Origin: an uncultured Dorea sp.
GTDB lineage: Bacteria > Bacillota > Clostridia > Lachnospirales > Lachnospiraceae
DNA length: 64,000 nt
Reading direction: 5' to 3'
Assembly (NCBI GenBank): GCA_910588745.1
Contig: CAJURK010000003.1
Span: forward strand, 11,660-75,659
Shown here: piece by piece, positions 47,560 through 64,000 of the stretch
Layout: every line of letters starts with the position of its first letter
How positions within the stretch are numbered: the stretch's first letter is position 1
Notes under the pieces: generated by a model
What the model was told of the DNA's origin: nothing
Seen by the model: only the letters and a program-made list of their open reading frames with translations
Databases searched by the model: none
Position numbers and translations under genes: made by a program

Positions 47560-50500
47560 TCACTGCGCCTCTACAAAAGCATTCCCCATATCTTCCGGTC
47601 CGCTTTTTCCTTTTTCTACCAGCACAATTTCAATTGCCTCCAGACGCTTGGCAAGTCCCTCGGTTCCGGCCGATTCACCGTTCACAGCCCAGCCAAGCCA
47701 CCCATAGGTCTGTGCGTGGACACGATAATATATATCGTATTTCTTCTCCATATCGCCCGTCAGACGAATCTGAATCGCTTCCAGTCTCTTAGCCTGGCCG
47801 CTGGTTCCCGACACGGCTCCGTCGCTTCTCCAGTCGTCCTCCCAGCCATAGGTCTGCACATGGGTACGGTACTGAACGCTGCCGGAAATTTCTTCGTCCT
47901 TCTTCTGAATCTGAATGGCTTCCAACCTCTTAGCCTGACCGCTGGTTCCCGATACGGCCCCGTCAAATACATAAGCCTGCCAGCCGTAGCTCTGCACATG
48001 TGTCCGATAGCTAAGCGCTGCTTTTCTAAAGGTATCTCCGGTCTCTCCCGGCGCGGAATTTCCCTTGGGAACCAATTTGATCTGAATCGCTTCCAGACGC
48101 TTCGCATATCCTTCGCTTCCGGATGAAGCCCCGTTCTTTGCCCATCCAAGCCAGCCAAATGTCTGTACATGAACACGGTAATAGACGTCATACTCCTGTT
48201 CCAACTCGCCGGTCAGCTTAATCTGGATTGCTTCCAGACGCTTGGCCTCCCCGCTGGTTCCCGCCATAGCGCCGTCAGACTTCCATCCCTGCCAACCGTA
48301 GCTCTGTACATGAGTACGGTAAGTAATTCCTCCTGAAACACCGGTATTCTTTACGGATATCTGAATGGCTTCCAGGCGCTTGCCCTCTCCGCTGGTTCCT
48401 GAAATTTCGCCGTCTCCCTTCTCGCCCTGCCAGCCGTAAGTCTGCACGTGGGTTCTGTATGACAGCATCTTCTCGTTTGATTTATAAGGAATAGCCATGC
48501 TTCCAGGCGCCTCTTCTCCTTTTTTCACCAGCTTAACCTGGATCATCCGAAGCTCTTTCGCATATCCGGAAGTTCCGGCCGCCTCGCCGTTTTCCGCCCA
48601 GTCCATCCATCCGATTCCGTCAACATACGCGCGATAATATACGTTATACGCATGTTTCAGCTCTCCGGTCAGCCGAACCTTAAATGCCTCCGTACGCTTC
48701 CCGGCGCCCGGCATCCCGGCGGTTCCGTTCACGCCGCTCCAGTCCTGCCAGCCATAACTCTGCATATAGACGGCATATTCAATACTGCCCGCGGTTCTTT
48801 GATTTCTCAATCCGATTTTGATAGCTTCTACCCGATTTCCCGTGGCTCGTCCTGAGTCAAACCCATTGGTTACTTCTCCGGACCATCCGCCATTTGCAAA
48901 GGTACTATATACAGCGTCTTCTTTCAGCCATTCGGATTCATCCGGAAGTATCCCGTTGTTTGCCGTAAACGTATAGGTTCCTCCTTTTAACCGGCAGGTC
49001 AGATATCCGTTCTCCGTCTCTGTTTTCTGCGCCGCTCCTCCGACCATGATCGTTTTGTTTCCGTTCTTCACCGGCAGACACAGTTCCGCCTCTGAATTAG
49101 AGGGAACGGTAATAGTTCCTGAAATACTTCCGTTTCCGTCCAGCGAATAAGCCGCTTCAATATTCCCCTTCATCGTGGGAACCTTGATCGAGGCGGTTTT
49201 CACACCTCCCGGCTGCAGTTTCACCTGAAAAGTATCAAACCCGGCGCTGGTAGGCTGTATACCAAACATTCCCCGAACCAACATACTTCCCGGAGACGAC
49301 CCCCATGGGTGGCAAAAGCTCATATTGGCTTTCAGCGCGCTGCTCCACGCCTCTGTTGTAACGGTTGCCCCAAGCCCGTACATCATATATCCCCAGCTAC
49401 GAACTCCCAGCAGCTTCTCCGGATTACTCATAATCTTCCTTGCAAGATCTCCGTGATTGCTCCGATATAATCCCTGCAAAAGAAAATACGCGCTGTACAC
49501 GCTCATCTTAATTTCTTCGTCATCCTCAATCGAAGCATAAATCTTATCCGCCATCGCCTGATTTGTATACACCCCAAATGCCAGGGCGTATGCCGCCCCA
49601 TGCTGCGAGGAATGCATAACAACATTCCCCCGGCTGTCCAGTCCGTCATAAAACTCTCCGCTTTCCGGATTGTAGAGCTTCTCGATCAGATTTTTCTTAA
49701 TGGTATCCGACAAATCTTGGTAACGTCTGCTCTCATCCTCATGCCCCAGCGCTTTAGCTATCTTCGCCATATCTCCATAGCCTCCGACGCATACTGCGTT
49801 GAACACCGTATTATAATATGCGCTGGTCAATTTATATCCGTCCAGCTCTGAAGTAGGCCAGTCCACCATGATCCTCTGACCGGATACGCTTCCGCCCGCA
49901 ACATTCTTCATCAATCCCATAGATGCATCATAATAATTCTCTAGAGATTTATCCTTAAGCAGTTGGTAAGAAACCTCCAGATCCCTGGCGTCTCCGGTAT
50001 ACATATAATTCTCGTATACCAGCATAATATTATAGAGGGAATACTCTGCCGGCCAGGTAGTATGACTTAACAGATATTCTGCTGAAAGCTTTGCGGACGG
50101 CGAAGCTTCCGAAAAGCTGTAGCTTGTCATTGCAGTAATCAAGGCATCCCCCTCATACGGTCTTCTCTCCCTGTTCTGGGTATCTACATAGACGTCCTGG
50201 TTAGTTACTTTGCTCGTATGTTTTACCAGTCCGTATAAATCATTCAACACTTTATTGGATGAATCAAACCCTGACGCATCTTCGTCAAATTCCTGCCGGA
50301 GAGATAAACCTTTTATATTGTCCGCACCCAATCCGAAACTCAATCCGCTAATCATTACATATCGGAATGTTTTCATCCCAATTCCAGAAAGAATCTGGCT
50401 TCCGCTCTTCAAAGACCACCTTTCCTGATAAACATTTCCGGTATTCATTGCATATTTCACATTTCCCGACGCATCTAGCTCTTCCCCATATTCTAACGTA

Positions 50501-51882
50501 ATAGTTCCGCCGCTGCTGTTTGCGTTTAAACGTATGGAGCCGACAATCTCTTTTCCAAAATCAATCAGATACCGTCCGTTTCCCAAAGCCTTCACCGACT
50601 GAGGCGCAACCTCATAACGCTTCATATTATTAATCTGCGCTGGTTTCAGCGACATGCCGTTCAGTCCTCCGCTTCCGGAAGGCGCTCTCCATCCCTCCTC
50701 ATGATATCCTGCAGCTTGCCATCCTTCCGGATACTGGGAGGCATTGACATTATCTTTCCTTGCAGTATAATAAGTCGTCCCAATTGAATCCTTATCTGAA
50801 CCTATATAAATACCCTCTGCATTCAGGACTTTCCATGCGGCGCTGTCACGCCCACTGTTGGTTACAATCTCCTGTCTGCCGTCTAAATAATAATATGTAA
50901 GCTGGCATAAAAACGCCTGTCCTGCTTCTGCATAATTCACTGCCCCTATGACGTTTTCCCCATCTTTTAATAAATCGGAGATATCATAAGTATTGTAATA
51001 CAGCGTTCCTCCGTCCTGCCGCGGCGGACCTGCCCCTACTTCTTTCCCATTCACATATAAGTTATATACATACTGACATGTCTGCTCCGTTGACGCAGCG
51101 GTAATGCTCAGCACTGCTTTTTCTACATCGGAAGGCTTCTGAACCTGATGTCTAAGCATCACCACTTTTTGCCCTGGAGTTCCCCATATTCCAGAAGTAC
51201 TCGCCCATTTTCCTCCTACGGCTGTGGTAAATGCCTGCGGCTCAGAGAGAGAACTTTCTTTCCCCTGTCCGTTCCTAATCTGAACCTGCCAATAGTACAG
51301 TTCATTGTCCTCCAGGACAGACGATAGATCATGCAAAACAGATGTGTTATCTGCGCTCTGTATCCACTGAGTATCGTGCAGATAATTTCCCTTTCCCACA
51401 TCCTCCAAGCGTTTGGACAGAACGATACGGTAAGCGCTCTGAGTCTGCATATCATTTACCGATGCGTCCATCCACGAAAAGGACAACTTCTCTTTTGTCA
51501 CGCCATAAGGCTTTGACAGCAGGTTAATCTTCATCCCATAAGGAGCGTCATCCCCGGCTCTTCCAAATACTAATTCTTCCAGACCGGTATCCTCCGTGAG
51601 TTCCTCCTCGCGTATCACCGTATCTTCCGATTCAGAATCCTCTTCTGGTTCTGAGCCTCCCTCCCCGAAGTCTTCCGGTATCTCTTCGTCTGGACTGTAC
51701 GTATCTTCGGAAGCGCCAGATTCCTCTCCCGGTTCTCCCGTATCGTCCCCGGTTTCCTCCCCTGGTTCATCCTGAGAAGGTTCCGCTGGCAGTTCTTCTG
51801 CTGAAACATATTTTCCATCCAGCAATGTCGCGCAGATAACAGCTATGATTAATAAAACGACTCTAATTCTCTTAATTCCCAA
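47560..51882 (-). CDS. Secreted alpha-L-rhamnosidase (GH78-like) with C-terminal ChW repeats
   Basis: 1440 aa, TTG start. Signal peptide IRVVLLIIAVICATLL...SAEE, then an acidic linker. GH78-like blocks: FSWMDAS...QSAYRIVL, ELYYWQVQIRNGQGKES...AFTT, DTQNRERRPYEGDA, FCHPWGSSPGSMLVRGMFGIQPTSAGFDTFQVKLQPGG. About 8 ChW repeats occupy the last roughly 470 aa. Confidence 0.75.
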   Translation of the reverse strand: MGIKRIRVVLLIIAVICATLLDGKYVSAEELPAEPSQDEPGEETGDDTGEPGEESGASEDTYSPDEEIPEDFGEGGSEPEEDSESEDTVIREEELTEDTGLEELVFGRAGDDAPYGMKINLLSKPYGVTKEKLSFSWMDASVNDMQTQSAYRIVLSKRLEDVGKGNYLHDTQWIQSADNTSVLHDLSSVLEDNELYYWQVQIRNGQGKESSLSEPQAFTTAVGGKWASTSGIWGTPGQKVVMLRHQVQKPSDVEKAVLSITAASTEQTCQYVYNLYVNGKEVGAGPPRQDGGTLYYNTYDISDLLKDGENVIGAVNYAEAGQAFLCQLTYYYLDGRQEIVTNSGRDSAAWKVLNAEGIYIGSDKDSIGTTYYTARKDNVNASQYPEGWQAAGYHEEGWRAPSGSGGLNGMSLKPAQINNMKRYEVAPQSVKALGNGRYLIDFGKEIVGSIRLNANSSGGTITLEYGEELDASGNVKYAMNTGNVYQERWSLKSGSQILSGIGMKTFRYVMISGLSFGLGADNIKGLSLRQEFDEDASGFDSSNKVLNDLYGLVKHTSKVTNQDVYVDTQNRERRPYEGDALITAMTSYSFSEASPSAKLSAEYLLSHTTWPAEYSLYNIMLVYENYMYTGDARDLEVSYQLLKDKSLENYYDASMGLMKNVAGGSVSGQRIMVDWPTSELDGYKLTSAYYNTVFNAVCVGGYGDMAKIAKALGHEDESRRYQDLSDTIKKNLIEKLYNPESGEFYDGLDSRGNVVMHSSQHGAAYALAFGVYTNQAMADKIYASIEDDEEIKMSVYSAYFLLQGLYRSNHGDLARKIMSNPEKLLGVRSWGYMMYGLGATVTTEAWSSALKANMSFCHPWGSSPGSMLVRGMFGIQPTSAGFDTFQVKLQPGGVKTASIKVPTMKGNIEAAYSLDGNGSISGTITVPSNSEAELCLPVKNGNKTIMVGGAAQKTETENGYLTCRLKGGTYTFTANNGILPDESEWLKEDAVYSTFANGGWSGEVTNGFDSGRATGNRVEAIKIGLRNQRTAGSIEYAVYMQSYGWQDWSGVNGTAGMPGAGKRTEAFKVRLTGELKHAYNVYYRAYVDGIGWMDWAENGEAAGTSGYAKELRMIQVKLVKKGEEAPGSMAIPYKSNEKMLSYRTHVQTYGWQGEKGDGEISGTSGEGKRLEAIQISVKNTGVSGGITYRTHVQSYGWQGWKSDGAMAGTSGEAKRLEAIQIKLTGELEQEYDVYYRVHVQTFGWLGWAKNGASSGSEGYAKRLEAIQIKLVPKGNSAPGETGDTFRKAALSYRTHVQSYGWQAYVFDGAVSGTSGQAKRLEAIQIQKKDEEISGSVQYRTHVQTYGWEDDWRSDGAVSGTSGQAKRLEAIQIRLTGDMEKKYDIYYRVHAQTYGWLGWAVNGESAGTEGLAKRLEAIEIVLVEKGKSGPEDMGNAFVEAQ

Positions 51883-51998: not shown

Positions 51999-52006
51999 CA
52001 TCTGCC

Positions 52007-53851
52007 TTATTTCACAATCCCTATTGTTTTTCCTACAAAGTACTGTTCTCCGTCTTCATCTACTACATAAGCATGAATCTGGTACTCCCCCTCTTTATAT
52101 CCAAAATTCGGAACGCTAATTTCCGCGCAGTAACGCTCGTCTTCCTGCCCCATACTGCTCATTTGGATCCACTGCATGTCGCTCTGGTCTTCTTTGGTCC
52201 ACACTGCCAGCAGCATAGAATTGATCCTCTTATCTAGATTCTTAAAATTGTGGACTTCCACCGCCATAATACCCGTACTGTAATCATACGTCCCTGCCGT
52301 CACTGCCGCTGTCACCAGTTTCCCAGCGTCATTAAGCATTGCGTCTTCCTCAAGTTCTAGGCTCGCCATATCCTCCAGGAATCGTGATCTTTTCCCTAAT
52401 TCTTCCTGTTCATTCTCCAGCCCAATTTCTTCTGCCAGGGTCGGCCTTCCGGAAAACAGATTCGTTCCCAGCCCCAGTCTGTCCCCTTCAATCCTTACTC
52501 CCATAGCTGCAAGAGTCGTCGGGAAATTATCAAATGTTGTATAAACTCTTTTCTTGTCACTCTTACATTCAGCCGCAGAATTGATATATGCCGCATACGT
52601 TTTTCTCTGGTATTCCTTATCAATATCCTCGCAGAAATCCTTGTCCATAGTAGGATGGTCGCCGCAAATTACTACCGTTGTGTTTTCATAGAAATCCTGC
52701 CTCTTTATCCAATCTAAAAATTTTGTAACCTGGGCGCTGGAACATGCCATGACATTTGCATACTGGTCATTCTCATATATATCCGGGCAAATATCACATA
52801 CATAACCATCCTCAAAATGCGTATCTACAGTCAGCATTGTAAAATTAAAAGGCTCCTCTTTACCTGCCAATTCAAGAAGCTTTCGTTTAGCAAACTCAAA
52901 CAGTTTCTTATCTTCATACCCCCACCATACTCGGTATTCCTCCGGTATCCACTCCTCCTCTGCCGCACGAACATAATCTATTATTTCATAATTCCCATGC
53001 TCCGTAAAATACAAACGTCTTCCCCCAAAAGTCGCATCTGAACCGACAAGCAACGTCTGCGAATATCCTGCCTGCCGCAGGATATCGCCAATCGTAATTG
53101 CCCCTGGAAAAAATGTTTCCTGCATATTCATATTATTCCCATCTACCGCTATATTTAAAGGAAGCCCTGCCGTCTGTCCAAACATCGCTCCCATTGTCCA
53201 GGTCGTCCCTACCAGTGAATATCCGCCATTCAGTTCTATGCCGTTCCCTGAAAAATCTTCGTTTTCCTGAGCGATTCTTGTCAGCTCTGGAATCACATTT
53301 TCATCGAAAGCGCCTCCGTTCTCACTATCCGCATAAGTCGTTTCCATAGATTCAAGGAATATGTATATCAGATTTCTTTTCTTCTCCGGAAAAGTAAGGG
53401 AAACATCCGCCGGACTAACATAATAGTCTTCTACAAAAGTCGAGTCAATGCCCTGGGATTTTACATAATTCCCTGCATCCAGCTCATTCCATGCCGTCCT
53501 GACATTTGAATAGGACGCGGTGACTGAAACTGCAATTCCAGCCGCCATCACAATATAATATCTCTTCTTCCCCCTCAGTCCCCAGAACACAAACATACAT
53601 GCCAGAAACAATACGATTGCGGGCGCTACGCATGTCCCCAGATATTCCATAATCATATCCGTACTGGTTCCGTCCAGCGAAGTAGAGAGATGATACACCA
53701 ATTCATCCATAGACAGATTGCTCCATGTATCAAACATCCACTGAATACTAAAATACAGCGCCGCTGCGCCAAACATCAGACACAGCGTCGCAGCTGTTCC
53801 TATGATTGTTAATACTTTCCCAACTACTTTCATTACTTTCTTGATTCTCAT
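52007..53851 (-). CDS. LtaS/MdoB-family (sulfatase-fold) phosphoglycerol transferase-like membrane protein with a C-terminal Bsp-like repeat
   Basis: 614 aa with N-terminal helices. Sulfatase-fold blocks are LIYIFLESMETTY, TWTMGAMFGQTAGLPL and VVICGDHP. The C-terminal LLAVWTKEDQSDMQWIQM...GEYQIHAYVVDEDGEQYFVG resembles the GBS Bsp-like repeat. Confidence 0.7.
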   Translation of the reverse strand: MRIKKVMKVVGKVLTIIGTAATLCLMFGAAALYFSIQWMFDTWSNLSMDELVYHLSTSLDGTSTDMIMEYLGTCVAPAIVLFLACMFVFWGLRGKKRYYIVMAAGIAVSVTASYSNVRTAWNELDAGNYVKSQGIDSTFVEDYYVSPADVSLTFPEKKRNLIYIFLESMETTYADSENGGAFDENVIPELTRIAQENEDFSGNGIELNGGYSLVGTTWTMGAMFGQTAGLPLNIAVDGNNMNMQETFFPGAITIGDILRQAGYSQTLLVGSDATFGGRRLYFTEHGNYEIIDYVRAAEEEWIPEEYRVWWGYEDKKLFEFAKRKLLELAGKEEPFNFTMLTVDTHFEDGYVCDICPDIYENDQYANVMACSSAQVTKFLDWIKRQDFYENTTVVICGDHPTMDKDFCEDIDKEYQRKTYAAYINSAAECKSDKKRVYTTFDNFPTTLAAMGVRIEGDRLGLGTNLFSGRPTLAEEIGLENEQEELGKRSRFLEDMASLELEEDAMLNDAGKLVTAAVTAGTYDYSTGIMAVEVHNFKNLDKRINSMLLAVWTKEDQSDMQWIQMSSMGQEDERYCAEISVPNFGYKEGEYQIHAYVVDEDGEQYFVGKTIGIVK

Positions 53852-54061: not shown

Positions 54062-56233
54062 TTAATTGTAAACTACTACGGTCGTTCCTGCCGGAATATT
54101 ATCATATATCCATTTGGCGTTATCCATCTCCAGTCTTACACACCCATGGGACAGCGCCATTCCGACTCTTCCATCCGCAATTGCGCCGTTGGGCCAGCAG
54201 GTTACGGAATGGAACAGATAATCCCCGTAAAACTGCGTGAACCAGAAACATCTGTATGCGCCGGAGTTAAAATAATACCCTCTAATTCCGACGCTGAACA
54301 CACCGGTCACCGTCGGAGTACCCGGCGCGCCGTCGGCGCACTGCCAGTAATGGACGTTGCTCCAGAATCCTCTGCCGCCCTGATAAACCCCGACCGTATG
54401 GGCGCTTCTGTCTACCATGACAATATATCTTGTAGGACTGCTGTGCATGTTCGCCAGCGCGATCATTCCCGGATCCGGCCCTGGGTTTACTCTAGTTTCG
54501 GTATAATATCTGTCATTGGCTCCCGGAGCCGCCGCATCCTTAGACACCAGCCTGATCTGCAGCGCTTCCATACGATATCCGATCTTACTGGTTCCCGCTG
54601 CCTGCCCGTTCTTTGCCCATCCGAGCCAGCCGTACTTCTGCACATGGGCGCTGTAGTAAATATCATAGTAATTGGCGATATCGCCGTCAAGCCGGATCTT
54701 CACTGCTTCCATGCCTTTAGAACCGTCTGCGGAACCACAAAACGTTCCCTGATCTACCCAGTCAGTCCAGCCTGTAGAAGACAGATGCACAGCATACTGA
54801 ATGGAGCCTGAAGGAATATTCTCATTCGCCTCATCCCTGTTTAAATACAAGGTGATTCCTTCCAACCGCTTACTTTGGCCTAGCGTACCGACGGTGCCGC
54901 CCTGCGCAATATTTTCAGTGGTTCCGATTTCCTGGACTGCTCCCGTATAATAAAAATCACCGCTGTCATATCCCTGGATAAACGTTCTGCCCTCCGTCGG
55001 CACTCCCGGATCTTCTCCTTTTTTCACCAGTTTGATTTTAACAGCTTCCACTCTCTTGCTTAAATTAGCAGAGCCTGCAAGCGCAGCCGTATGGTCCGTC
55101 GCATCATTGCCAATCGTATAATCCGTCCAGCCGATCTTAGCCATATGCAGACTATAATATACGTCGTAATGCTGCGCTATTTCGCCGGTAAGCGCAATCT
55201 GCAGTGCTTCCACACGTTTTGCCTGGCCGGATGTGCCTATCAGTTCTCCATCCTGTTTCCAGTCCTGCCATCCGATTCCCTGCACATGGGCCCGATACTT
55301 GATTCCGCCGCTGTAACCGGTAGTTCCCACCGGATCGGGAAGGCTGATCTTTAACGCCTCCATACGCTTACTCTGCCCCGTCACGCCGCCCTCTGCATCG
55401 TCAAATGCATTTGGCCTCCAGCCATAAGACTGCACATGAGCCTGATAGCTTACCAGCGGACATCTGTAATAATCCGTCACGTTCTCCGGCCGGCTCGCAT
55501 CGTCGTCCTTCTTTACCAGCTTGATCTCAACGGCTTCCATTCTCTTGGCAAACTGCGCGCTTCCAGCCCTTGCTCCGTCCTTCGCCCAATCAAGCCATCC
55601 GAAAGTCTGCACATGCGTTCTGTAATAGACGCTGTAATCCTCCGCAATCGGTCCTTCCAGCCTGACAGAAATCGCTTCCAGCCGCTTGGCTTCGCCAGTG
55701 GTTCCCGCGTCCGCCCAGTCAGCCGACTCCTCTCTCCATCCGTAGGTCTGCACATGCACCGCATACCGAATGCTGCTTCCCTCATACTTTTCCGGAAGGC
55801 CGGCAAGTCTGAGTCTGATTGCCTCAACTCGTTTCGCCTGACTTTCGGTTCCCCCGATCGCGCCGTCCTTCACCGGATCCAGCCAGCCGTAACTCTGCAC
55901 ATGGGCCTGATATTCCACGCTGACCGGCTCTTCCGGCTCCTGCGCTTTCGGTTCCGCAGTTTCCGGACTTTCCTGATTACTCTCAAGCTGCTCTTCTGAA
56001 ATCTCCCCTTCGTATAAACCTGTCCCCTCGTTATCCGAAGTGTCCTGATCTGATTCGTTAAACATATCTTCTTCCTTCGGTACAGACTCTGCCGTGGTAT
56101 CTCTCTGCTCCCCTGTCTCGTCTGCGGCGGTAACTTCTTCCGCCTCAGCCCTCATACCCGGCAGTACGCTGGTTCCCATCAATGCAAAACAAAGAAGGAA
56201 TGCCAGCCATGATTTTTGAACATGTAGTTTCAT
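54062..56233 (-). CDS. Secreted ChW-repeat protein with a C-terminal L,D-transpeptidase (YkuD) domain
   Basis: Signal peptide MKLHVQKSWLAFLLCFALMGTSVLPGMRAEA, then about 8-9 ChW repeats. C-terminus has YIVMVDRSAHTVGVY...FHSV...ALSHGCVRLEMDNAKWIY (the SHGC catalytic motif). Start at ATG 56231-56233 (GGGAGGA upstream). Confidence 0.85.
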   Translation of the reverse strand: MKLHVQKSWLAFLLCFALMGTSVLPGMRAEAEEVTAADETGEQRDTTAESVPKEEDMFNESDQDTSDNEGTGLYEGEISEEQLESNQESPETAEPKAQEPEEPVSVEYQAHVQSYGWLDPVKDGAIGGTESQAKRVEAIRLRLAGLPEKYEGSSIRYAVHVQTYGWREESADWADAGTTGEAKRLEAISVRLEGPIAEDYSVYYRTHVQTFGWLDWAKDGARAGSAQFAKRMEAVEIKLVKKDDDASRPENVTDYYRCPLVSYQAHVQSYGWRPNAFDDAEGGVTGQSKRMEALKISLPDPVGTTGYSGGIKYRAHVQGIGWQDWKQDGELIGTSGQAKRVEALQIALTGEIAQHYDVYYSLHMAKIGWTDYTIGNDATDHTAALAGSANLSKRVEAVKIKLVKKGEDPGVPTEGRTFIQGYDSGDFYYTGAVQEIGTTENIAQGGTVGTLGQSKRLEGITLYLNRDEANENIPSGSIQYAVHLSSTGWTDWVDQGTFCGSADGSKGMEAVKIRLDGDIANYYDIYYSAHVQKYGWLGWAKNGQAAGTSKIGYRMEALQIRLVSKDAAAPGANDRYYTETRVNPGPDPGMIALANMHSSPTRYIVMVDRSAHTVGVYQGGRGFWSNVHYWQCADGAPGTPTVTGVFSVGIRGYYFNSGAYRCFWFTQFYGDYLFHSVTCWPNGAIADGRVGMALSHGCVRLEMDNAKWIYDNIPAGTTVVVYN

Positions 56234-57213: not shown

Positions 57214-58637
57214 TTTTCTCCTCCATATTGTACTGTAATTTTTTTATTTGCAACTGTATGGCTGCCGTTCTCATCGACAGTCATAAGCTGTACCTCATAT
57301 GCATCTGATTCCTCCAGCGTCTGCTCATACAAATATAGCCGGTATCCATTATCACAATATTCTCCGTTCTCCTTTTCCGTCAGCATTCCAAACGCTTCAT
57401 AGAACTGTGTTCCACCTGCTCCGGACGGAACGATACTCACATAAATTTTCGCATGGTCTCCCAGATATTCTGGATCAATCTCTCCTGATATCACATAATA
57501 AGAACCTGACTTTTCCATCTGCACCGTTGACTGTGTTTCGCTTTCTTCCCCTTTCTCTACGACCGCTGCCGGCCCCTGCATAATCGGCGGTTTTTCAATC
57601 ACAGAAGCAATCCTTCTTTCCACTCTTTCTACTACCACATAATCCGGGCGGTAACGAAATACCTGATTTAAGCTGTACGGCTCCAGCTTCGTAAAATATG
57701 TCTCCGCAAATTCGTTCGCTATAAACGGAAATAATGTATTTCCGAAAGAATCCCGATACATCAGTATACGATCCTGTCCTTCTTCATTAGCGGCAATCGT
57801 CCAGTCGCCCTCTACGTTATCTGCATCCGCTGCAAGCTGATAATTCTGTATAACCTGATAATATTGATTCTGTTCCGGCTCGGCTTTCACCGAGTACAGC
57901 ATGCGGTTCAAATCTCCAATATAATCCTGCCTTATTTCATAAGGAATCTCCTGATATGTCTCATGCTCTTTCCCCATTGCGTTCAGCAGACTATGATATG
58001 CTAATACCGCGCCTTTATTGTTCCAGTGGGAATCTCTTTTCAAATAAAGAATTTCATCCCGCATTTGAAAAGCATTTACTAAATCAACATAATGAACGCC
58101 TTCCGAGTCCAGATAAGGTCTTAACTTTTCCAAATTACTTACGCTTCCGGCTTTACAATAGTAAGGCATATGTTCGCCATACAATGTATTCTTATTTGGC
58201 GCTACTGTATAAAAAAATTTTGCTCCAGACGATTCTACCAGCCCCTGCATTAGTGATAAATTATGAGCAATCATATACAGCGCCCGATCCGACAGTATAT
58301 TTACGCCCTGATAATCGTCCAGTGTTCCCTTAAAATACAGCCATCCGTCTGTTCCGACAACAATCTGTTCCGTTGCGGAAGTCAAAAATATCCTGCTGCG
58401 GGCCACTGCATTCGCCCCTACCATTTCCGGACGGAATGCAAAATGATCCTCGAAATATTTCCCAATCCCTATCAGAAATTGTTCATTTAATCTATTCTTC
58501 TTCAGCAATTTCGGAAATTCTGCCATCTCCCTATTTTCTGTCGTTTCCGTCGTAGGATTTACCAGCATTCCAATCAATGGCGTCCACAATATCATCATAA
58601 TGATGCCTATATATAAATAACTCTATTTTTTCTTCAT
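57210..58637 (-). pseudogene. Second DHHW/AlgJ-like gene carrying an in-frame TAG at codon 5
   Basis: An RBS-served ATG at 58635-58637 (TAGGAGT-AAAAAA-ATG) gives MKKK-TAG-SYLYIGIIMMILWTPLIGML. The stop is at 58623-58625. The track ORF restarts at ATG 58598 and so loses the charged N-terminus and half of the signal anchor. The body has the YLKRDSHWNNKGAV D.HW motif. Confidence 0.55.
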
Positions 58638-59088: not shown

Positions 59089-61086
59089 TTATCTCATGTA
59101 ATTTAACGGAGCCGATGCATAAGTCAGCATATACAAACCATAATGATGTTCGTAATCCTGTTCCGGATCGCAAACATACGTAGTTCCGTCTATTCTGACT
59201 TCAACCCATCCATGTCTGCTTACTTTTCCGCTTCTCAGCTTAACAGTTCCTTCAATGAATTCCGCATCATAACCAAGACGTTTTGCCGCTCCTGCAAATG
59301 CCGCCGCAAAACAGTAGCAGTTTCCTCTCCGGTTCTCTACTCCATAAATTGTATAACCTTCTTCTCTGGAAAATCCCTCCGGCGGCGCCATCGGATCCGG
59401 AAGTTTCTCATAGCTAAGATGGTTCACTACCCAGTTGTAACATCCGCTTAATGTAGCGCCTCCGCCTGATATCACTGAATCAACTGCTCTTTCATAACGC
59501 TCTTTGTATCTTTCCGTTTTTAAATATCCGGATGTACTTCCGGGAGCCGCCGCGCCTTTGGGAACAATCTTAACCTGCAAAGCTTCCATTCGGTAACCGA
59601 TTCCCTGCGTACCTGCAGCCTGTCCGTTTGCCGCCCAGTCCAGCCAGCCATATTTTTGCACATGCGCCCTATAATATATATCGCAATATTGTTCCAGTTC
59701 TCCCAGCAGCTTTATTTCAATGGCTTCCAGACGCTTTCCGTTCCCGGATATTCCGACTTCTGAACCTCCCAGGCTGTTCCCCGTCCAGCCTTCGCTTTGC
59801 AGATGAGTCCGGTATTGAAGCATTCCGCTATACTTGTCTGTAATATTCCCTTCGATCCCCGCATCAACGGAAGCTCTGAACGCCTCTATCGTTTTCCCCT
59901 CTCCAGTGGTGCCGGCAGCGTCTCCGTTTCCGGCCTCCGACTTCCATCCGTCTCCAACTATGCTTACAGCAAACTTCAGCGCACCGATATTTTCCGAAGA
60001 CAGCGACGCCCTTCTTGTCTGCTCCGGCTCGCCTCCGCTTCCCTTTCTGATCACCTTTATCTGAATAGATTCAATGGCTCTGTAATAGTCAATGGTTCCG
60101 GCAGTCTCCCCGTTTTTCGCCCAGCCTAATGTTCCCCATTTGGATGCATGTACCTGATAATAAATATCATATTGTTTACTCACTTCGCCTGTTAGACGAA
60201 TCTGAACAGCCTCCAGACGCTTTCCTTTTCCGACAGTTCCGGCCTCTTGTCCGTCCTTTACCCAATCAAGCCAGCCGTAACTCTGACACATAGCGCGGTA
60301 TTCTACAGATCCTTCTATTTCCTTGCCGTCTGCATCTACCGGGTTTTTAAGATAGAGCTTAAGAGCTTCCATTCGTTTGCTCTGCCCCTCTGTTCCGGAT
60401 TTGGAGCCGTCCGCAACCGAATCCAGCCAGCCATAACTTTGTACATGTGAAGAATATGTAATCGTTCCCTTCTCGGTAGGCGATACAAAGGAAGTTCCTG
60501 AGAGTACGGGAGCCTCCGCACTCCCCTTTTTCACTAACCGAATCTCAAACGCCTCCATACGTTTGCCATAGCCGGCGCTTCCCGTCGGCGCGTCATTCTT
60601 TGCCCAGCCCAGCCAGCCGTAGCTTTGGATGTGCGTACGATAATAAATATCATACTCCTCGGCAAGCTTACCGGTAAGACGAATTTTCATTGCCTCTATC
60701 CGCTTCGACCGTCCCTCTGTCCCTGCCGCCTCACCTTCCGGCACATAATCCTGCCAGCCCACAGACTGTACATGGGCGTTGTAGTAAACCGATGTAATAT
60801 CTGAACTTTCTTCCAGGCTTTCATCATTGCCCTGCGCTGTATTTTCCCCGGTATTATCCGTAATTGTTTGGGGAACCTCATCCGAAACATCCTCTTTATC
60901 TTCTTCAAGATTTAATGCCGCTTCCGATTCCTCATCTAATCCGGGCGGTTCAACAGCGTCTTCATCTTCACTGTCTGCCTGGTTTTCCTGAATCTCCGTA
61001 CCTAAATCTCCAGCAAAAGCAGTCATACTGCCTGACGCAGTTAACGCTGCTGTCAGAATCAAAACCAATATTCTGTTTTTCATCAA
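59089..61086 (-). CDS. Secreted ChW-repeat protein with a C-terminal transglutaminase-like cysteine peptidase core
   Basis: 665 aa. Signal peptide MMKNRILVLILTAALTASGSMTAFA, then about 8 ChW repeats. C-terminus has RRGNCYCFAAAFAGAAKRLGY...RHGWVEVRIDGTTYVCDPE (Cys-His-Asp arrangement). Confidence 0.75.
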   Translation of the reverse strand: MMKNRILVLILTAALTASGSMTAFAGDLGTEIQENQADSEDEDAVEPPGLDEESEAALNLEEDKEDVSDEVPQTITDNTGENTAQGNDESLEESSDITSVYYNAHVQSVGWQDYVPEGEAAGTEGRSKRIEAMKIRLTGKLAEEYDIYYRTHIQSYGWLGWAKNDAPTGSAGYGKRMEAFEIRLVKKGSAEAPVLSGTSFVSPTEKGTITYSSHVQSYGWLDSVADGSKSGTEGQSKRMEALKLYLKNPVDADGKEIEGSVEYRAMCQSYGWLDWVKDGQEAGTVGKGKRLEAVQIRLTGEVSKQYDIYYQVHASKWGTLGWAKNGETAGTIDYYRAIESIQIKVIRKGSGGEPEQTRRASLSSENIGALKFAVSIVGDGWKSEAGNGDAAGTTGEGKTIEAFRASVDAGIEGNITDKYSGMLQYRTHLQSEGWTGNSLGGSEVGISGNGKRLEAIEIKLLGELEQYCDIYYRAHVQKYGWLDWAANGQAAGTQGIGYRMEALQVKIVPKGAAAPGSTSGYLKTERYKERYERAVDSVISGGGATLSGCYNWVVNHLSYEKLPDPMAPPEGFSREEGYTIYGVENRRGNCYCFAAAFAGAAKRLGYDAEFIEGTVKLRSGKVSRHGWVEVRIDGTTYVCDPEQDYEHHYGLYMLTYASAPLNYMR

Positions 61087-61234: not shown

Positions 61235-61244
61235 CTCAAATACT

Positions 61245-63671
61245 CTATTTTACAAAAGGCCGATCGGTCTTTCCGGGCGCTGCCCCGCCCTTTTCAACCA
61301 ATACAATTTCAATTGCCTCCAATCGCTTCGCCAGTCCTTCTGTTCCGGCGTTTTCACCGTTTTTCGCCCAGTCAAGCCAGTCATATGTCTGCGCATGAAC
61401 GCGGTAATATATATCGTACTTCGCTTCCATCTCGCCGGTAAGCTTGATTTGAATCGCCTCCAGACGTTTCGCCTGGCCTTCCGTTCCGCTGACACTGCCG
61501 CCCGTTACCCAGTCCTGCCAGCCATACGTCTGTACATGAGTCTTATACTGCAGAAACTGATTTTTGGAACTGTCAGCCAGATTAATCCGGATTCCTTCCA
61601 GACGCTTTGCCTGACCGGTGGTTCCGCTGGCTCCTCCATCATAAACATAACCGCCCCATCCATAGGTCTGCACATGGGTAGTATATTGAATCTTTGCCTG
61701 CCTGCAGGCGCCGGATACGTCCCCGGGAGCTGCTCCCCCCTTTGCTACAAGCTTAATTTCAACGGCTTCCAGACGTTTTGCATAATCCATCGTACCTGCC
61801 GTCTCCCCGTTCTTTGCCCAGCCGAGCCAGCCGAAAGTCTGGCAGTAAGTCCGGTAATAAATATCGTATTTCTGGGCAAGCTCCCCGGTCAGCTTCATCT
61901 GAACCGCTTCTAAACGTTTGCCGCTGCCGGCAAGCCCAGCCGCTTCCATATCCTGCTTCTCTCCGGTCCAGCCATAACTCTGCATATAAGTGTTATACAC
62001 AACATCTCCGGAATAATCCGCGTCCGTAATATCTACCTTCAGACCCTCCAAAAGTCTTGCCTGATTCATAGTTCCGCTGGATGCCCCGTCTGTTACCGCC
62101 GAAAGCCAGCCGATTCCATTTGCATAAGTCTGGTATGTCACAGCCATCGGCTTCTTTACAAATGGTTTATCTGTCTTTCCAGGCGCTGCCGCCGATTTCG
62201 GCAGCACCGCGATCTGAATTGCCTCCAGACGTTTCGCGTATCCCTGGGTACCCGCCGCCTGGCCGTTCTTTGCCCAATCCAGCCAGCCATAGGTCTGGCT
62301 GTGAACTCGGTAATAGATATCATACTTCGAGGCTTCTGAACCGGTCAGTTCAATTTTAAGCGCCTCCACCCGCTTGCTTTCCCCGGTAGTTCCCGCAAGC
62401 TGCCCGGAAGTTACATAGTCCATCCAGCCGTGAGACTGAACATGCGCCGAATACCGCACGCCCAAATCCCCATATCCCTGGCCTACATTAATTTTAAAAG
62501 CTTCCATTCGTTTGGCATATCCGGTCACGCCGGTCTGGTAGCCGTTCGGCACTACATCCTGCCAACCAAAAGTCTGCATATGAGAAGTGTAACTAATGAT
62601 ACCCGAATCCTGCACCTGCACCGGCTCCACATCGTCGGTCTTTACCATCCAGAAATTCAAATCAACGTCTCCTGATATGCCGTTCACCCTTCCTTTACTT
62701 GTGCATTGCCACATATCATATTTTCCATTGTAAGTACACTTGTTATTCCACTGCGCTATCCATTTTGACCAGGAACTATTTTGGAATACCGAACCCGTCA
62801 GGTAATTATTCCACCAGCTCAGACTGGAATAAATACCTACGCGGTACCCTGCCGCCGCAACCTTATCGCAGAATACCTGCGTCATCTTTGCAATCATATC
62901 TACGCCGGCGTCAAAAACATCGTCATCCTCCAAATCATAGTATACCGGAAGCGACGGATAATGTCCTTTGAGCAAACGCAGCACATGGTCTGCCTCGCTC
63001 TGCGCATAACTGATACTGTCCGCATAGGAATACAGATACACACCGTAAGGAATCCCCAGCCGCTCGCATTCCGATACATTATATTGCCAGTACTTATCAT
63101 CATATTTCGTCTTATCACTTCCGTATCCGCACCGGATAATTGCAAATTCAATGCCGTCTGCCTTTGCCTTCGCCCAGTCGATCTTTCCGTTCCACTCGCT
63201 AACGTCCATTCCCTTCTTCTCAGCCCCAATAATGACCGAGCCATCGCTGCTGATATAACGGCCGTTTACTTTCTGCCACGCATTAGCCACGGCCCGTGAA
63301 TATGCGCGCTGCGTAGTTACCGCAGGTTCTCCGTCCATATAACGGAAACTATTAGCTTTCAGCTCTTTTTCCTCTTCCGGTTCTTTTTCTTTTGATACTT
63401 CCTCTGGCGAATCTGACGGTTCTGTCTGCGCATATGACGCTCCCGGCATCCCTTCCGTTTCTCCGGCGGTTTCTTCCCTCACATCCTGTCCTTCTTCCAC
63501 TGTCTCTTCCGGCGTTTGGCCTTCATCGCCTGTCGCAATCTCTTCCTGCACAATCTCTTCCGCTTCTTCAATCTCCGCGGCCAAACTCACCGATGCATCT
63601 GCAAAGCTACCGCAAAGAATCAGAGCAATTGCAAGGAATCCTGCCCCATAACGCTTCATTTTTTTAATCAT
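61245..63671 (-). CDS. Secreted GH25 muramidase (lysozyme) with C-terminal ChW repeats
   Basis: 808 aa. Signal peptide MIKKMKRYGAGFLAIALILCGSFADA. The GH25 block is GMDVSEWNGKIDWAKAKADGIEFAIIRCGYG...GIPYGVYLYSYA...GDVDLNFW. About 9 ChW repeats follow. Confidence 0.85.
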   Translation of the reverse strand: MIKKMKRYGAGFLAIALILCGSFADASVSLAAEIEEAEEIVQEEIATGDEGQTPEETVEEGQDVREETAGETEGMPGASYAQTEPSDSPEEVSKEKEPEEEKELKANSFRYMDGEPAVTTQRAYSRAVANAWQKVNGRYISSDGSVIIGAEKKGMDVSEWNGKIDWAKAKADGIEFAIIRCGYGSDKTKYDDKYWQYNVSECERLGIPYGVYLYSYADSISYAQSEADHVLRLLKGHYPSLPVYYDLEDDDVFDAGVDMIAKMTQVFCDKVAAAGYRVGIYSSLSWWNNYLTGSVFQNSSWSKWIAQWNNKCTYNGKYDMWQCTSKGRVNGISGDVDLNFWMVKTDDVEPVQVQDSGIISYTSHMQTFGWQDVVPNGYQTGVTGYAKRMEAFKINVGQGYGDLGVRYSAHVQSHGWMDYVTSGQLAGTTGESKRVEALKIELTGSEASKYDIYYRVHSQTYGWLDWAKNGQAAGTQGYAKRLEAIQIAVLPKSAAAPGKTDKPFVKKPMAVTYQTYANGIGWLSAVTDGASSGTMNQARLLEGLKVDITDADYSGDVVYNTYMQSYGWTGEKQDMEAAGLAGSGKRLEAVQMKLTGELAQKYDIYYRTYCQTFGWLGWAKNGETAGTMDYAKRLEAVEIKLVAKGGAAPGDVSGACRQAKIQYTTHVQTYGWGGYVYDGGASGTTGQAKRLEGIRINLADSSKNQFLQYKTHVQTYGWQDWVTGGSVSGTEGQAKRLEAIQIKLTGEMEAKYDIYYRVHAQTYDWLDWAKNGENAGTEGLAKRLEAIEIVLVEKGGAAPGKTDRPFVK

Positions 63672-63710
63672 ATTATTCCCCTTATCTATATTATTTTAAG
63701 ATCCACATTC

Positions 63711-64000
63711 TTATTTTTTCAGGTGTTCTTCTGTTCCTCCCGGAGCCTCTCCTCCTTTGTCAACCAGCACGATCTGAATCGCCTCCAGGCGCTTATTTAA
63801 CCCTTCTGTACCTGCAGCCTCACCGTTCTTTGCCCAGTCAAGCCATCCATAAGTCTGGCAGTAAGCCCGGTAATAAACATCGTAATACTTTTCCATCTGG
63901 CCGGAAAGCTGAATCTGAATTGCCTCTATCGCCTTCTTCTGTCCGGTAGTCCCAGCCGTCGCCCCGTTATTTACAAAATTGCGCCAGCCTTCTCCCTGTA
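63711..64000 (-). CDS. C-terminal end of a further ChW-repeat protein (5' part lies outside the window)
   Basis: The frame is open to the window edge. It reads ...EKYYDVYYRAYCQTYGWLDWAKNGEAAGTEGLNKRLEAIQIVLVDKGGEAPG, and upstream codons continue the ChW pattern. Confidence 0.75.
   Translation of the reverse strand, partial: QGEGWRNFVNNGATAGTTGQKKAIEAIQIQLSGQMEKYYDVYYRAYCQTYGWLDWAKNGEAAGTEGLNKRLEAIQIVLVDKGGEAPGGTEEHLKK

Follow-up and report, generated by a model that had tools for sequence, protein, structure and literature searches.

ChW-repeat wall enzymes embedded in a cell-wall polysaccharide super-locus of an uncultured gut Dorea, with the locus polysaccharide as a candidate ChW ligand

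Introduction

Anchor-polymer pairs known from bacterial walls include CWB2 with PSII in C. difficile, SLH with pyruvylated SCWP and choline-binding repeats with teichoic acid. ChW repeats were first described in 2001. As summarized in PMC5817068, Sullivan (2007) reported repeats of ~46-50 aa with a conserved GW dipeptide and proposed that they act in triplets; a 2018 review records ChW outside Clostridia as well and enters its ligand as not determined.

The experimentally established case of an autolysin that binds the polymer of its own locus is AtlE/EpaU of E. faecalis, a GH25 enzyme encoded in the epa variable region that needs and binds the EPA decorations, which are teichoic-acid-like, and not the rhamnan (PMC12208459, PMC13343894, PMC9510096). 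That a protein can recognise a polyrhamnose backbone has a precedent in PlyC, which is reported to bind the Group A carbohydrate backbone (bioRxiv 10.1101/2021.03.19.436156). Among Lachnospiraceae, the glucorhamnan of R. gnavus is peptidoglycan-linked, and its cluster (RUMGNA_03512-03534) contains four rml genes, glycosyltransferases, two LCP genes and an LtaS homologue, with phosphoglycerol NMR signals in the polymer and one 'carbohydrate binding domain' protein of no assigned role at the cluster edge (PMC6601261).

Domains that resemble ChW have been described in lysins and phages. The C-terminal domain of the CL1 lysin is reported to bind peptidoglycan, better after removal of wall polymers with TCA, and to be similar to the binding domain of Lc-Lys (PMC10610939), which is specific for the amidated D-Asp (D-Asn) cross-bridge (Regulski 2013, as cited in PMC10610939). 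The lysozyme/mutanolysin wall fraction did not contain the ChW-like lactococcal phage anchor cAM12, for which another attachment was suggested.

Gene content of the locus

The stretch of DNA analysed here in full (the window, 64 kb) comes from an uncultured gut Dorea species and covers the greater part of a super-locus (>65 kb) for a cell-wall polysaccharide. All its open reading frames of interest are encoded on the minus strand, and those related to polymer synthesis and modification are the following:

750..3537, minus strand: two GT2 glycosyltransferase genes (Pfam)
3548..7300, minus strand: dTDP-L-rhamnose pathway, with rmlC (3548-4156), rmlD (4302-5258), rmlB (5316-6335) and rmlA (6404-7300)
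13005..18662, minus strand: Dlt-like aminoacylation cassette (Pfam and NCBIfam) of an amino-acid adenylation enzyme, a PLP-dependent decarboxylase, a 78-aa carrier protein (15506-15742), a DltB-like MBOAT and a 320-aa protein occupying the DltD position
18702..30960, minus strand: ABC-transporter-dependent glycan part (Pfam) with a DUF2142 membrane protein, Acyl_transf_3, a 1164-aa GT2+GT4+GT4 protein, GT2, a double GT4, ABC-2 permease, ABC ATPase and a 199-aa protein of no assigned family
31344..47311, minus strand: Wzx-dependent 'decoration' region (Pfam) with Wzx, UDP-glucose dehydrogenase, GT61, MBOAT+AlgX, six GT2, a TarI-like cytidylyltransferase, an epimerase/reductase, LicD and GT8
52007..53851, minus strand: LtaS/OpgB-family phosphoglycerol transferase with a GBS_Bsp-like repeat, candidate glycerol-phosphate decoration enzyme
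57210..58598, minus strand: AlgX/DHHW-type SGNH protein among the ChW genes, candidate partner for glycan O-acyl transfer

The rmlABCD set is complete (Pfam E 7e-78, 8e-87, 3e-88 and 1e-71 for rmlA, rmlB, rmlD and rmlC, respectively), and the window rmlA product is named RfbA at NCBI. Contigs of the same species (loci L001-L004) show that a Bac_transf initiating transferase, an LCP ligase (LytR_cpsA_psr) and another GT2 lie beyond window position 1; this ligase, just outside the window, would join the polymer to peptidoglycan. In the Dlt-like cassette the NCBIfam models matched are AA-adenyl-dom (337 bits, over its cut-off), DltB (9e-50) and DltC-like (2e-6). The product of 52007..53851 matches Pfam Sulfatase (6e-16) and GBS_Bsp-like (3e-15) together with the NCBIfam phosphoglycerol transferase model (6e-50, under its cut-off), and that of 57210..58598 matches ALGX (3e-17) and DHHW (2e-8), its gene keeping the same place in locus L093.

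With rmlABCD, an ABC-2 exporter accompanied by glycosyltransferases, a separate Wzx region and LCP, the locus appears by its gene content to fit the Epa / Rgp-Gac / lactococcal cwps type of locus. The initiator of Epa and Gac is of the WecA/TagO type and not Bac_transf. Pfam assigns glycosyltransferase domains to 14 genes of the window (families GT2, GT4/GT1, GT8 and GT61), whose sugar specificity is not readable from sequence, and the rhamnose content of the polymer is predicted from the genes.

ChW enzymes of the locus

Five complete genes and one partial gene encode ChW proteins, each with its own catalytic head:

9560..11683, minus strand: ChW x8 detected with C-terminal Peptidase_M23, between the polymer-modification genes and rmlA (Pfam ChW E 3e-113)
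47560..51882, minus strand: GH78 alpha-L-rhamnosidase with five GH78 domains and three C-terminal ChW triplets (ChW 8e-125)
54062..56233, minus strand: ChW x9 (three triplets) with C-terminal YkuD L,D-transpeptidase (Pfam ChW 1e-107, YkuD 1e-15)
59089..61086, minus strand: ChW x8 with C-terminal Transglut_core, cysteine peptidase-like (Pfam ChW 6e-102, Transglut_core 1e-7)
61245..63671, minus strand: GH25 muramidase with three C-terminal ChW triplets, ChW x9 (Pfam Glyco_hydro_25 3e-25, ChW 1e-131)
63711..64000, minus strand: last two ChW repeats, from the C-terminal end of a glucosaminidase-ChW gene truncated at the window edge (Pfam ChW 6e-31)

These genes, their heads and their position on one strand inside or flanking the glycopolymer genes had been proposed in an initial annotation made from the sequence, and all were confirmed, with Pfam ChW E values of 1e-102 to 1e-131 for the complete genes and polysaccharide genes both between and beside them. 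The proposal that the products are secreted, with 8-9 repeats each, likewise held: judged directly from the translations, all five complete proteins have a signal-peptide-like N-terminus, and Pfam finds 8-9 ChW stretches in each complete protein. The ChW scores over whole proteins range from 106 to 429 bits, where the cut-off is 22. For the GH78-ChW protein the count is 8 by Pfam and 9 by a purpose-built repeat HMM.

In the five complete proteins the signal peptide is followed by an acidic linker of 70-120 aa (pI about 4). The ChW blocks themselves are near-neutral to acidic (pI 5.0-8.4), which makes a charge-only attraction to an anionic polymer unlikely. In the GH25-ChW gene, GH25 spans about 62676-63209 and the ChW block about 61266-62603. 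The product of 54062..56233 has an exact database match named L,D-transpeptidase family protein, from Dorea sp. Identical copies of the M23-ChW protein occur on at least 24 contigs with unchanged neighbours (the index places the copy in 41 collection blocks), and the Transglut_core-ChW architecture is also present in locus L024, where it adjoins rmlC. Some ChW enzymes additionally carry SH3_3 or PG_binding_1 modules.

The full-length counterpart of the truncated gene, found in locus L093, encodes a Glucosaminidase+ChW protein of 1014 aa, and upstream of it are three more, NlpC/P60-ChW, M6-like-ChW and a 1194-aa protein. The ChW block thus runs past the window end, bringing the locus to at least nine ChW genes. 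Inside and beside the polymer genes at least nine secreted enzymes are encoded, with glucosaminidase, GH25, NlpC/P60, M23, L,D-transpeptidase, transglutaminase-like, M6-like and GH78 heads, which the ChW domains would hold in the wall non-covalently and multivalently.

Fold and distribution of ChW triplets

The repeats of the window proteins measure 46 aa and follow an A-B-C triplet pattern in which every C repeat is succeeded by a ~12-aa linker; in repeat length, triplet arrangement and occurrence in secreted proteins they agree with the description of the ChW family (PF07538). Most ChW proteins have three triplets (modal count 9 repeats among 120 homologues), and distant homologues have 6, 9 or 12 repeats. 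Lone triplets form the C-terminal domains of phage endolysins. Structure prediction for the third triplet of the GH25-ChW protein (61245..63671) gave a compact single domain (pLDDT 97.4, pTM 0.91), in line with the idea that a triplet can be modelled as a structural unit, and a Foldseek comparison of this model with the PDB returned no structural neighbour (best E 0.41). According to the model, ChW repeats fold by threes into a compact domain of ~140 aa, and the usual enzyme carries three of these domains with short Pro/Gly/Ala linkers between them.

A single ChW query retrieved 7194 matches at E 1e-10 or better; gut Lachnospiraceae, along with some Bacilli, have thousands of secreted enzymes with such repeats. 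Close homologues of the triplet, at 58-71% identity, occur in Neobacillus, Niallia, Robertmurraya, Trichococcus, Enterococcus, Faecalicoccus and Coprobacillaceae, so that the initial view of ChW as restricted to Clostridia has to be abandoned in favour of a distribution that includes Bacilli and Erysipelotrichia, in agreement with the 2018 review. The heads fused to ChW are mostly peptidoglycan hydrolases (GH25, amidase_3, YkuD, M23, glucosaminidase, CHAP, VanY and NlpC/P60). Between species the ChW block is conserved as much as the catalytic head, or more, with catalytic/ChW identities of 52/63% and 48/54% in GH78 examples and 74/72% in a GH25 example. This conservation indicates a conserved ligand, either a polysaccharide backbone or peptidoglycan.

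Genomic neighbourhoods of ChW genes

The neighbourhoods of 79 ChW loci of other species, chosen by triplet similarity alone and 44 of them full-length, were inspected over 10 kb. At least one core polysaccharide gene was present within this span in 31/79 loci and at least two in 26/79 (18/44 among the full-length loci), and polysaccharide neighbours were found in 13/16 loci of Bacilli and Erysipelotrichia. No core polysaccharide gene lay within 10 kb in 48/79 loci, and several genomes hold multiple ChW loci, none with polysaccharide neighbours. Among about 920 non-ChW neighbours we counted 35 GT2, 12 LCP and 10 Bac_transf genes against 20 ABC ATPases, a several-fold enrichment of wall-polysaccharide genes near ChW genes in the 79 loci when calibrated on the number of ABC ATPases and on how abundant these families generally are, rather than on matched control loci. 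A separate Pfam scan, covering 150 neighbours drawn at random, gave the same picture, with Glycos_transf_2 (6) and Bac_transf (5) outranking ABC_tran (3) and no peptidoglycan-synthesis family in the top 25. True rml genes (E below 1e-50) occurred within 10 kb in 8/79 loci, including those of Trichococcus, Niallia circulans, Bacillus sp. J14TS2 and Faecalicoccus (Poisson P about 5e-5, given an assumed 1.6% chance per random locus). Physical linkage of ChW genes with genes for wall polysaccharides is seen in several bacterial classes; the positional association anticipated for ChW recurs in independent lineages, with about 55-60% of the sampled loci free of polysaccharide genes within 10 kb.

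Linkage of this kind might have no functional content and descend from tandem duplication in the wall-gene neighbourhood of one ancestor, followed by inherited synteny and chance. ChW genes are indeed often tandem (30/79 loci with two or more), and many positive loci come from Lachnospiraceae related to the window. Set against this, Bacilli and Erysipelotrichia show the association again, but with other gene orders and other catalytic heads, the enrichment is far from chance under any reasonable background, and within Lachnospiraceae the linkage persists while the adjoining polysaccharide genes are replaced; we regard this explanation as very improbable.

The replacement of neighbours is best seen with the GH78-ChW gene, which in the window forms the junction of the ChW block and the Wzx gene. 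The GH78+ChW fusion is kept in 26 orthologue clusters, at identities down to 45%, and orthologues down to 48% always lie where the ChW-hydrolase block meets polysaccharide genes (loci L087-L089). At 60% identity the block abuts Wzx/TarI/LicD genes, at 52% MerR-methyltransferase, rmlABDC and LCP, and at 48% GDP-sugar genes, GT4 and an ABC-2 permease, supporting the view that ChW linkage within Lachnospiraceae outlasts turnover of the adjoining polysaccharide genes.

Candidate ligands of ChW

The most likely ChW ligand, we infer, would be the backbone or another conserved portion of the rhamnose-containing, peptidoglycan-linked polysaccharide encoded in the same locus, in parallel with AtlE/EpaU and EPA. 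The initial annotation had put forward the polymer of the locus as the ChW anchoring partner; recurrent linkage and the AtlE/EpaU precedent speak for this putative binding, and the conservation of ChW disfavours a variable decoration. If the polymer is the ligand, that conservation leads us to expect recognition of a conserved part, e.g. the backbone, and not of a strain-variable decoration. The peptidoglycan hydrolases would then remodel the wall wherever the polymer occurs, and GH78-ChW would act on the polymer itself, trimming or turning over terminal rhamnose. A wall-polysaccharide super-locus whose embedded enzymes are anchored via ChW to the locus's own polymer would account jointly for these observations, and we give it about an even chance of being correct. 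The locus polysaccharide is thus a testable, unproven candidate ligand.

Clustering of hydrolase and wall-polymer genes could also reflect co-regulation without binding. ChW triplets would in that case bind peptidoglycan itself (glycan strand or stem peptide), and the polysaccharide might even mask the ligand, a reading that we consider rather unlikely. It draws on the CL1/Lc-Lys-type domain, the one relative with reported biochemistry. Comparison of the CL1 domain with the ChW triplet profile (hhalign 94.9%, E 4e-8, 25% identity over 107 columns, in register) indicates remote homology only, and the CL1 lysin has no match to Pfam ChW. This domain is reported to bind better once TCA strips the surface polymers and to resemble the cross-bridge-specific Lc-Lys domain, so the earlier statement that the ChW partner is not established, although consistent with the 2018 review, needs to be qualified by a reported peptidoglycan ligand in a remote relative. 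Furthermore, most ChW heads act on peptidoglycan, which would suit a peptidoglycan-binding module just as well, more than half of the ChW loci are not beside polysaccharide genes, and ChW identity between Clostridia and Bacilli (58-71%), with conservation like that of the heads, is as expected for an invariant ligand. Yet the CL1 domain shares just 25% identity with ChW. In other wall-binding folds ligands differ within one fold. A peptidoglycan ligand also leaves unexplained why Bac_transf, LCP, GT2 and rml genes are the neighbours, rather than genes of peptidoglycan synthesis, and why a ChW block was retained on a rhamnosidase at the polysaccharide junction despite long divergence; the SH3_3 or PG_binding_1 modules of some ChW proteins would, moreover, be redundant. 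Taxa that share near-identical ChW triplets differ in peptidoglycan cross-bridge chemotype, which argues against recognition of the cross-bridge, although not of the glycan strand.

The interleaving of the ChW block with the phosphoglycerol transferase and AlgX/DHHW genes, and its contact with the Wzx/TarI/LicD region, raise the further prospect that ChW binds another envelope component, such as a (lipo)teichoic-acid-like polymer, ribitol/glycerol-phosphate decorations or a membrane glycolipid. AtlE/EpaU binds teichoic-acid-like decorations and not the rhamnan, the cAM12 anchor was suggested to be attached outside the peptidoglycan fraction, and triplets within one protein are just 41-70% identical to one another, so that they may differ in ligand. 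We judge this quite improbable, since ChW diverges no faster than the heads between species with different decoration genes, compared with 47-48% for the AtlE domain, and neutral-to-acidic ChW blocks are poorly suited to charge binding of polyanionic phosphate polymers.

Returning to the locus polysaccharide as ligand, a bolder version, which we advance tentatively as possible, is that the ChW triplet constitutes a new lectin-like fold for the conserved backbone of rhamnose-containing wall polysaccharides in Clostridia, Bacilli and Erysipelotrichia. It would give Gram-positive walls a fourth major anchor-polymer pair, with GH78-ChW as a 'polysaccharide autolysin' trimming its own rhamnan.

The locus names a concrete candidate ChW ligand, backed by a cross-lineage genomic association and by the AtlE/EpaU precedent. 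If the polysaccharide is the ligand, this would account for the positioning of autolysins in dominant gut commensals and for the release of wall fragments with immunologically active rhamnans, e.g. the R. gnavus glucorhamnan, and would provide a new module for surface display and cell targeting. If peptidoglycan is the ligand, the embedded hydrolase toolkit still indicates coupled polymer attachment and wall remodelling.

Comparison with known systems

Among characterised polymers the glucorhamnan of R. gnavus comes nearest, and its cluster resembles the window as a Lachnospiraceae rhamnose-polymer locus with rml, LCP and an LtaS-type gene; it is, however, far smaller (23 genes), and ChW enzymes or a rhamnosidase are not described for it. 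The Lc-Lys/CL1 domain, like ChW, has three ChW-like repeats and serves as a C-terminal wall-targeting domain on a peptidoglycan hydrolase. It is a single triplet with peptidoglycan and not a secondary polymer as its reported ligand, whereas the window enzymes usually have three triplets. The CWB2, SLH and choline-binding anchors have folds unrelated to the ChW triplet but are likewise repeat modules displaying varied enzymes, with genes often near polymer genes.

A close parallel is offered by epa. The AtlE binding domain is only 47-48% identical between two strains of the same species and follows their decorations, in contrast to ChW blocks, which are conserved like the heads. AtlE repeats are of about 75 aa and of DUF5776 or GW type, whereas the window proteins have ChW only, and epa holds one enzyme, without a rhamnosidase, where the Dorea locus has at least nine ChW genes and a GH78 rhamnosidase. 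Both loci have a hydrolase gene inside the decoration region of a rhamnose locus, with a conserved rhamnan part and a variable part of Wzx/TarI/LicD type, and AtlE/EpaU and the window GH25-ChW protein are both secreted GH25 muramidases in which the N-terminal region is disordered and the wall-binding repeats are at the C-terminus.

Organization of the ChW genes

Pfam matched all six ChW genes recognized in the initial annotation, the five complete ones with their catalytic heads. They lie on the minus strand, which carries all the substantial ORFs of the window:

9560-11683, minus: ChW and Peptidase_M23
47560-51882, minus: GH78 rhamnosidase (five GH78-specific domains) and ChW
54062-56233, minus: ChW and YkuD
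59089-61086, minus: ChW and Transglut_core
61245-63671, minus: GH25 and ChW
63711-64000, minus: C-terminal ChW fragment

The ChW E-values at the whole-protein level ranged from 1e-102 to 1e-131. The translations of all five complete proteins begin with a signal-peptide-like segment, and in every window ChW enzyme an acidic low-complexity linker of 70-120 residues (residues ~25-150, pI ~4, net charge -21 to -32) lies between this segment and the first folded domain. Same-species contigs that reach further show the ChW block running on upstream past the window end: the interrupted gene encodes a 1014-residue glucosaminidase-ChW protein, and in front of it lie genes for a ChW-NlpC/P60 protein, an M6-like-ChW protein and a 1194-residue protein without a Pfam match. 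This continuation brings the ChW genes of the locus to at least nine. A scan of 45-64 kb for promoters and terminators gave counts no higher than those of shuffled sequence. In some enzymes ChW is accompanied by an SH3_3 or PG_binding_1 module (L052:9899-12934, L067:9188-12442, L093:4435-6885), which places two different types of wall-binding module within one protein.

The surrounding polysaccharide locus

Judged by their predicted products, the remaining genes of the window are one very large wall-polysaccharide locus, which in transcription order (minus strand) comprises:

ChW block, minus, first in transcription order: ChW genes with an interleaved AlgX/DHHW SGNH protein (Pfam)
52007-53851, minus, amid the ChW genes: LtaS/OpgB-family phosphoglycerol transferase fused to a GBS_Bsp-like repeat
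Wzx flippase region, minus: UDP-glucose dehydrogenase, GT61, MBOAT and AlgX, six GT2, TarI-like cytidylyltransferase, epimerase, LicD, GT8
After the Wzx region, minus: DUF2142 membrane protein and acyltransferase
Next, minus: 1164-residue triple glycosyltransferase, more GT2/GT4 genes, ABC-2 permease and ATPase
13005-18662, minus: Dlt-like cassette (NCBIfam, Pfam)
11812-13008, minus: MerR-methyltransferase fusion
Next, minus: M23-ChW gene, then rmlA, rmlB, rmlD and rmlC, then two GT2 genes
Just beyond window position 1 (same-species contigs): Bac_transf initiating transferase, LCP ligase, another GT2

The Dlt-like cassette encodes an amino-acid adenylation enzyme whose score exceeds the NCBIfam cut-off, a diaminopimelate/ornithine-type PLP-dependent decarboxylase, a 78-residue carrier protein (15506-15742), a DltB-like MBOAT protein and, where DltD would be expected, a 320-residue protein. 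The type of decarboxylase suggests that something other than plain D-alanine is transferred. The Bsp-like repeat of the phosphoglycerol transferase constitutes a second, different putative wall-binding repeat within the ChW block. The fusion of a MerR DNA-binding domain to a SAM methyltransferase, a candidate regulator of the polysaccharide locus, is encoded a short distance upstream of the rml genes in the window and also, at L088:14373-15590, in a relative whose GH78 enzyme is 52% identical. Between the M23-ChW gene and rmlA lie genes for an AAA_21 ATPase and an RloB-like protein (7446-9312, minus), which match parts A and B of the PADLOC candidate defence system PDC-M12 (E 4e-143 and 4e-72) and have a low GC content (0.36). 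Its absence from the same-species contig L004 makes this pair look like a mobile element inserted into the polysaccharide locus.

Association of ChW and polysaccharide genes across lineages

A ChW triplet profile built from 8 closer triplets was scanned over one genome per species, giving 79 loci picked by triplet similarity alone (58-71% identity). Most are from Lachnospiraceae, and the others include Neobacillus, Niallia, Robertmurraya, Bacillus, Trichococcus, Enterococcus, Faecalicoccus, other Erysipelotrichales, Proteiniclasticum and Butyricicoccaceae. The presence of triplets in Bacilli and Erysipelotrichia, together with a 2018 surfaceome review that noted ChW beyond Clostridia, contradicts the earlier view of ChW as a Clostridia-restricted repeat. 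Some ChW loci came from contigs of MAGs named Parabacteroides, Bacteroides, Alistipes, Bacteroidaceae and Coriobacteriaceae (L007, L032, L056, L057, L065, L066, L074, L078), with triplets 61-70% identical to those of Dorea; such contigs probably represent wrongly binned Firmicutes DNA, in which case ChW would not truly occur in those taxa.

The flanks were searched with the polysaccharide proteins of the window and the Bac_transf and LCP proteins of L004. At least one core polysaccharide gene was present within 10 kb in 31 of the 79 loci and at least two in 26; among the 44 loci with full flanks, 18 had at least two and 14 at least three. Some 920 non-ChW neighbour genes included 35 GT2, 12 LCP, 10 Bac_transf and 20 ABC ATPase genes, the last, at 2.2% of neighbours and near their usual genomic share, serving as calibrator in place of matched control neighbourhoods. 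LCP and Bac_transf usually amount to a few genes per genome, so that both are about ten-fold over-represented near ChW genes if this general background is taken as reference. A Pfam scan of 150 random neighbours likewise returned Glycos_transf_2 (6) and Bac_transf (5) ahead of ABC_tran, MFS_1 and BPD_transp_1 (3 each), with two each of RmlD, LCP and IspD, and none of its top 25 families belonged to peptidoglycan synthesis.

Bona fide rml genes (E below 1e-50) lay within 10 kb of a ChW gene in 8 of the 79 loci (Poisson P ~5e-5 under an assumed background of 1.6% per locus), directly adjoining it in L050 (a locus from another genome), Bacillus sp. J14TS2 and Trichococcus, and elsewhere in Niallia circulans and Faecalicoccus acidiformans, among others. 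This count is an underestimate, because the GH25-ChW gene of the window itself is ~54 kb from rmlA. Bacilli and Erysipelotrichia contributed 16 loci, 13 of them with polysaccharide neighbours, and the ChW proteins there comprise glucosaminidases, amidases, an L,D-transpeptidase, an M4 protease and an S8 protease. The Enterococcus locus L077, considered as an EpaU-like case, was rejected: its ChW gene, which encodes a beta-lactamase-like protein, has PTS and peptidase genes around it.

The positional association predicted in the initial annotation is thus present across lineages. ChW genes are also scattered: in several MAGs, three or four ChW loci lack polysaccharide neighbours. That the two sets of genes have no functional link at all is the least probable of the readings weighed here, and very improbable.

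The GH78-ChW rhamnosidase

Orthologues of the GH78 catalytic region form 26 clusters reaching down to 45% identity, and every cluster retains the ChW block, which is missing from more distant homologues. The solved relatives of the region are distant. In three ChW-bearing orthologues on long contigs the gene ends a ChW-hydrolase block and adjoins polysaccharide genes, which differ from one contig to another: Wzx, three GT2, TarI-like, epimerase and LicD genes (60% identity); MerR-methyltransferase, rmlA/B/D/C, GT2 and LCP genes (52%); and GT2, GDP-sugar pathway, GT4 and ABC-2 permease genes (48%). Of the ChW-less homologues, one belongs to a rhamnose catabolic operon (RhaA, RhaM, kinase, aldolase, AraC, MFS) and a second has a miscellaneous gene context. 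Another (L091:10001-12712), 44% identical to the window enzyme, directly follows a MurJ/Wzx-type flippase in an unrelated polysaccharide locus, and hence the recruitment of GH78 to such loci is not tied to ChW. Taken together, these contexts indicate a family repeatedly recruited to polysaccharide loci, which would fit a GH78-ChW enzyme that trims the cell's own polymer. In two of the relatives, cdaA (diadenylate cyclase), a YbbR/CdaR regulator and an HPr gene directly precede the ChW-hydrolase block (L087:3849-6271, L088:3611-6016).

The ChW triplet and its candidate ligands

A repeat HMM derived from the ChW proteins of the window resolved 46-residue repeats arranged in A-B-C triplets, with a ~12-residue linker rich in Pro, Gly and Ala behind each C repeat, and three triplets in most ChW proteins. 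In the GH25 enzyme the three-triplet block spans 61266-62603 and one triplet 61266-61697 (minus strand). The modal number of repeats in the 120 best homologues is nine, and distant homologues have 6, 9 or 12. The AlphaFold model of a single triplet, based on an alignment of 58 diverse triplets, is confident (mean pLDDT 97.4, pTM 0.91) and shows the triplet as one compact, mostly beta domain. Residues W14, W60, W107, W110, Y5, Y51 and Y98, along with Gly positions, are invariant or nearly so in this alignment, and the polar residues H8, Q10, K31, R32 and E34 are conserved among close triplets. The blocks are aromatic-rich and neutral to mildly acidic (pI 5.0-8.4), and on this ground charge-driven binding to anionic polymers was judged unlikely.

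Foldseek searches of the PDB with the model found no solved likeness (best E 0.41, TM below 0.45), so that structure gives no inference about the ligand, and the triplet sequence gave a chance-level PDB match only. A viral predicted-structure library yielded five endolysin-like phage proteins of 303-527 residues with one triplet each (TM 0.74-0.80), four of them annotated (lysin, lysozyme, endolysin or cytoplasmic protein) and one unnamed; the named ones come from uncultured Siphoviridae. A lone triplet can thus act as a wall-targeting unit. Among isolated phage genomes, tblastn with the triplet matched only 2 uncultured gut phage records.

The 2018 review gives the ChW ligand as not determined, and our literature search found no connection between ChW and rhamnose. 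Experimental work on ChW-like phage domains comes from two studies. For the endolysin of the lactococcal phage AM12, the C-terminal part was aligned to ChW by hand; it serves to display proteins on L. lactis, but it was not recovered with the lysozyme/mutanolysin wall fraction. The binding domain of the Lacticaseibacillus phage CL1 lysin was called ChW via HHpred, and its binding improved once walls had been extracted with TCA, a result its authors took to mean that it binds peptidoglycan (PMC10610939). It is also reported to resemble the Lc-Lys binding domain, whose specificity is for the amidated D-Asp cross-bridge (Regulski 2013, as cited in PMC10610939). Pfam detects Amidase_2 alone in the CL1 lysin, with no ChW, and profile comparison aligns it with the ChW triplet at 94.9% probability (E 4e-8), with the repeats in register. 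The CL1 domain is thus a probable remote relative of the ChW triplet whose reported ligand is peptidoglycan, and it is the main evidence for peptidoglycan as the ligand of ChW itself, a serious alternative that we regard as possible.

The initial observation of clustered ChW and polysaccharide genes is confirmed and extended, and anchoring of ChW to the locus polymer remains a partly supported candidate function, favored by the predicted association across lineages and by an experimental analogue, AtlE/EpaU, with peptidoglycan weighing against it. We would give about an even chance to a conserved part of the locus-encoded polysaccharide being the ligand.

Comparison with known systems

In AtlE/EpaU of E. 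faecalis, a GH25 muramidase, the N-terminal region is disordered and the C-terminal part consists of repeats (PMC12208459, PMC13343894, PMC9510096). Its gene lies inside the epa decoration region in every E. faecalis strain, its activity requires strain-specific EPA decorations, and its wall-binding domain binds EPA via teichoic-acid-like decorations; the 2026 EpaU paper connects loss of this locus-encoded autolysin with raised c-di-AMP. The AtlE repeats are DUF5776 or GW repeats of ~75 residues, whereas those of the window enzymes are ChW, which excludes the latter from the AtlE family while the working principle would be the same.

Between two strains the AtlE binding domain shows 47-48% identity, varying along with the decorations. 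In GH78 and GH25 orthologues, by contrast, the ChW blocks are conserved as much as the catalytic domains or more (catalytic/ChW identities of 52/63% and 48/54% for GH78 and 74/72% for GH25), and triplets of Clostridia and Bacilli are 58-71% identical. If the polymer is the ligand, the epitope should accordingly be conserved, for example the backbone. Peptidoglycan would offer a conserved epitope as well; other envelope polymers or decorations are an improbable ligand.

The window locus resembles E. faecalis epa and the R. gnavus glucorhamnan cluster in its two-module design, in which an ABC-dependent part beside the rml genes is joined by a Wzx-dependent decoration part with ribitol/LicD-type genes. 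The R. gnavus glucorhamnan is linked to peptidoglycan and carries phosphoglycerol, and its cluster encodes two LCP proteins as well as an LtaS homologue (PMC6601261); the phosphoglycerol transferase of the window recalls this homologue and the phosphoglycerol signals. The window locus would belong to the class of wall-polymer loci with polymer-targeted wall enzymes, within which it is unusual for the size of its enzyme set and for its conserved ChW-fused rhamnosidase.
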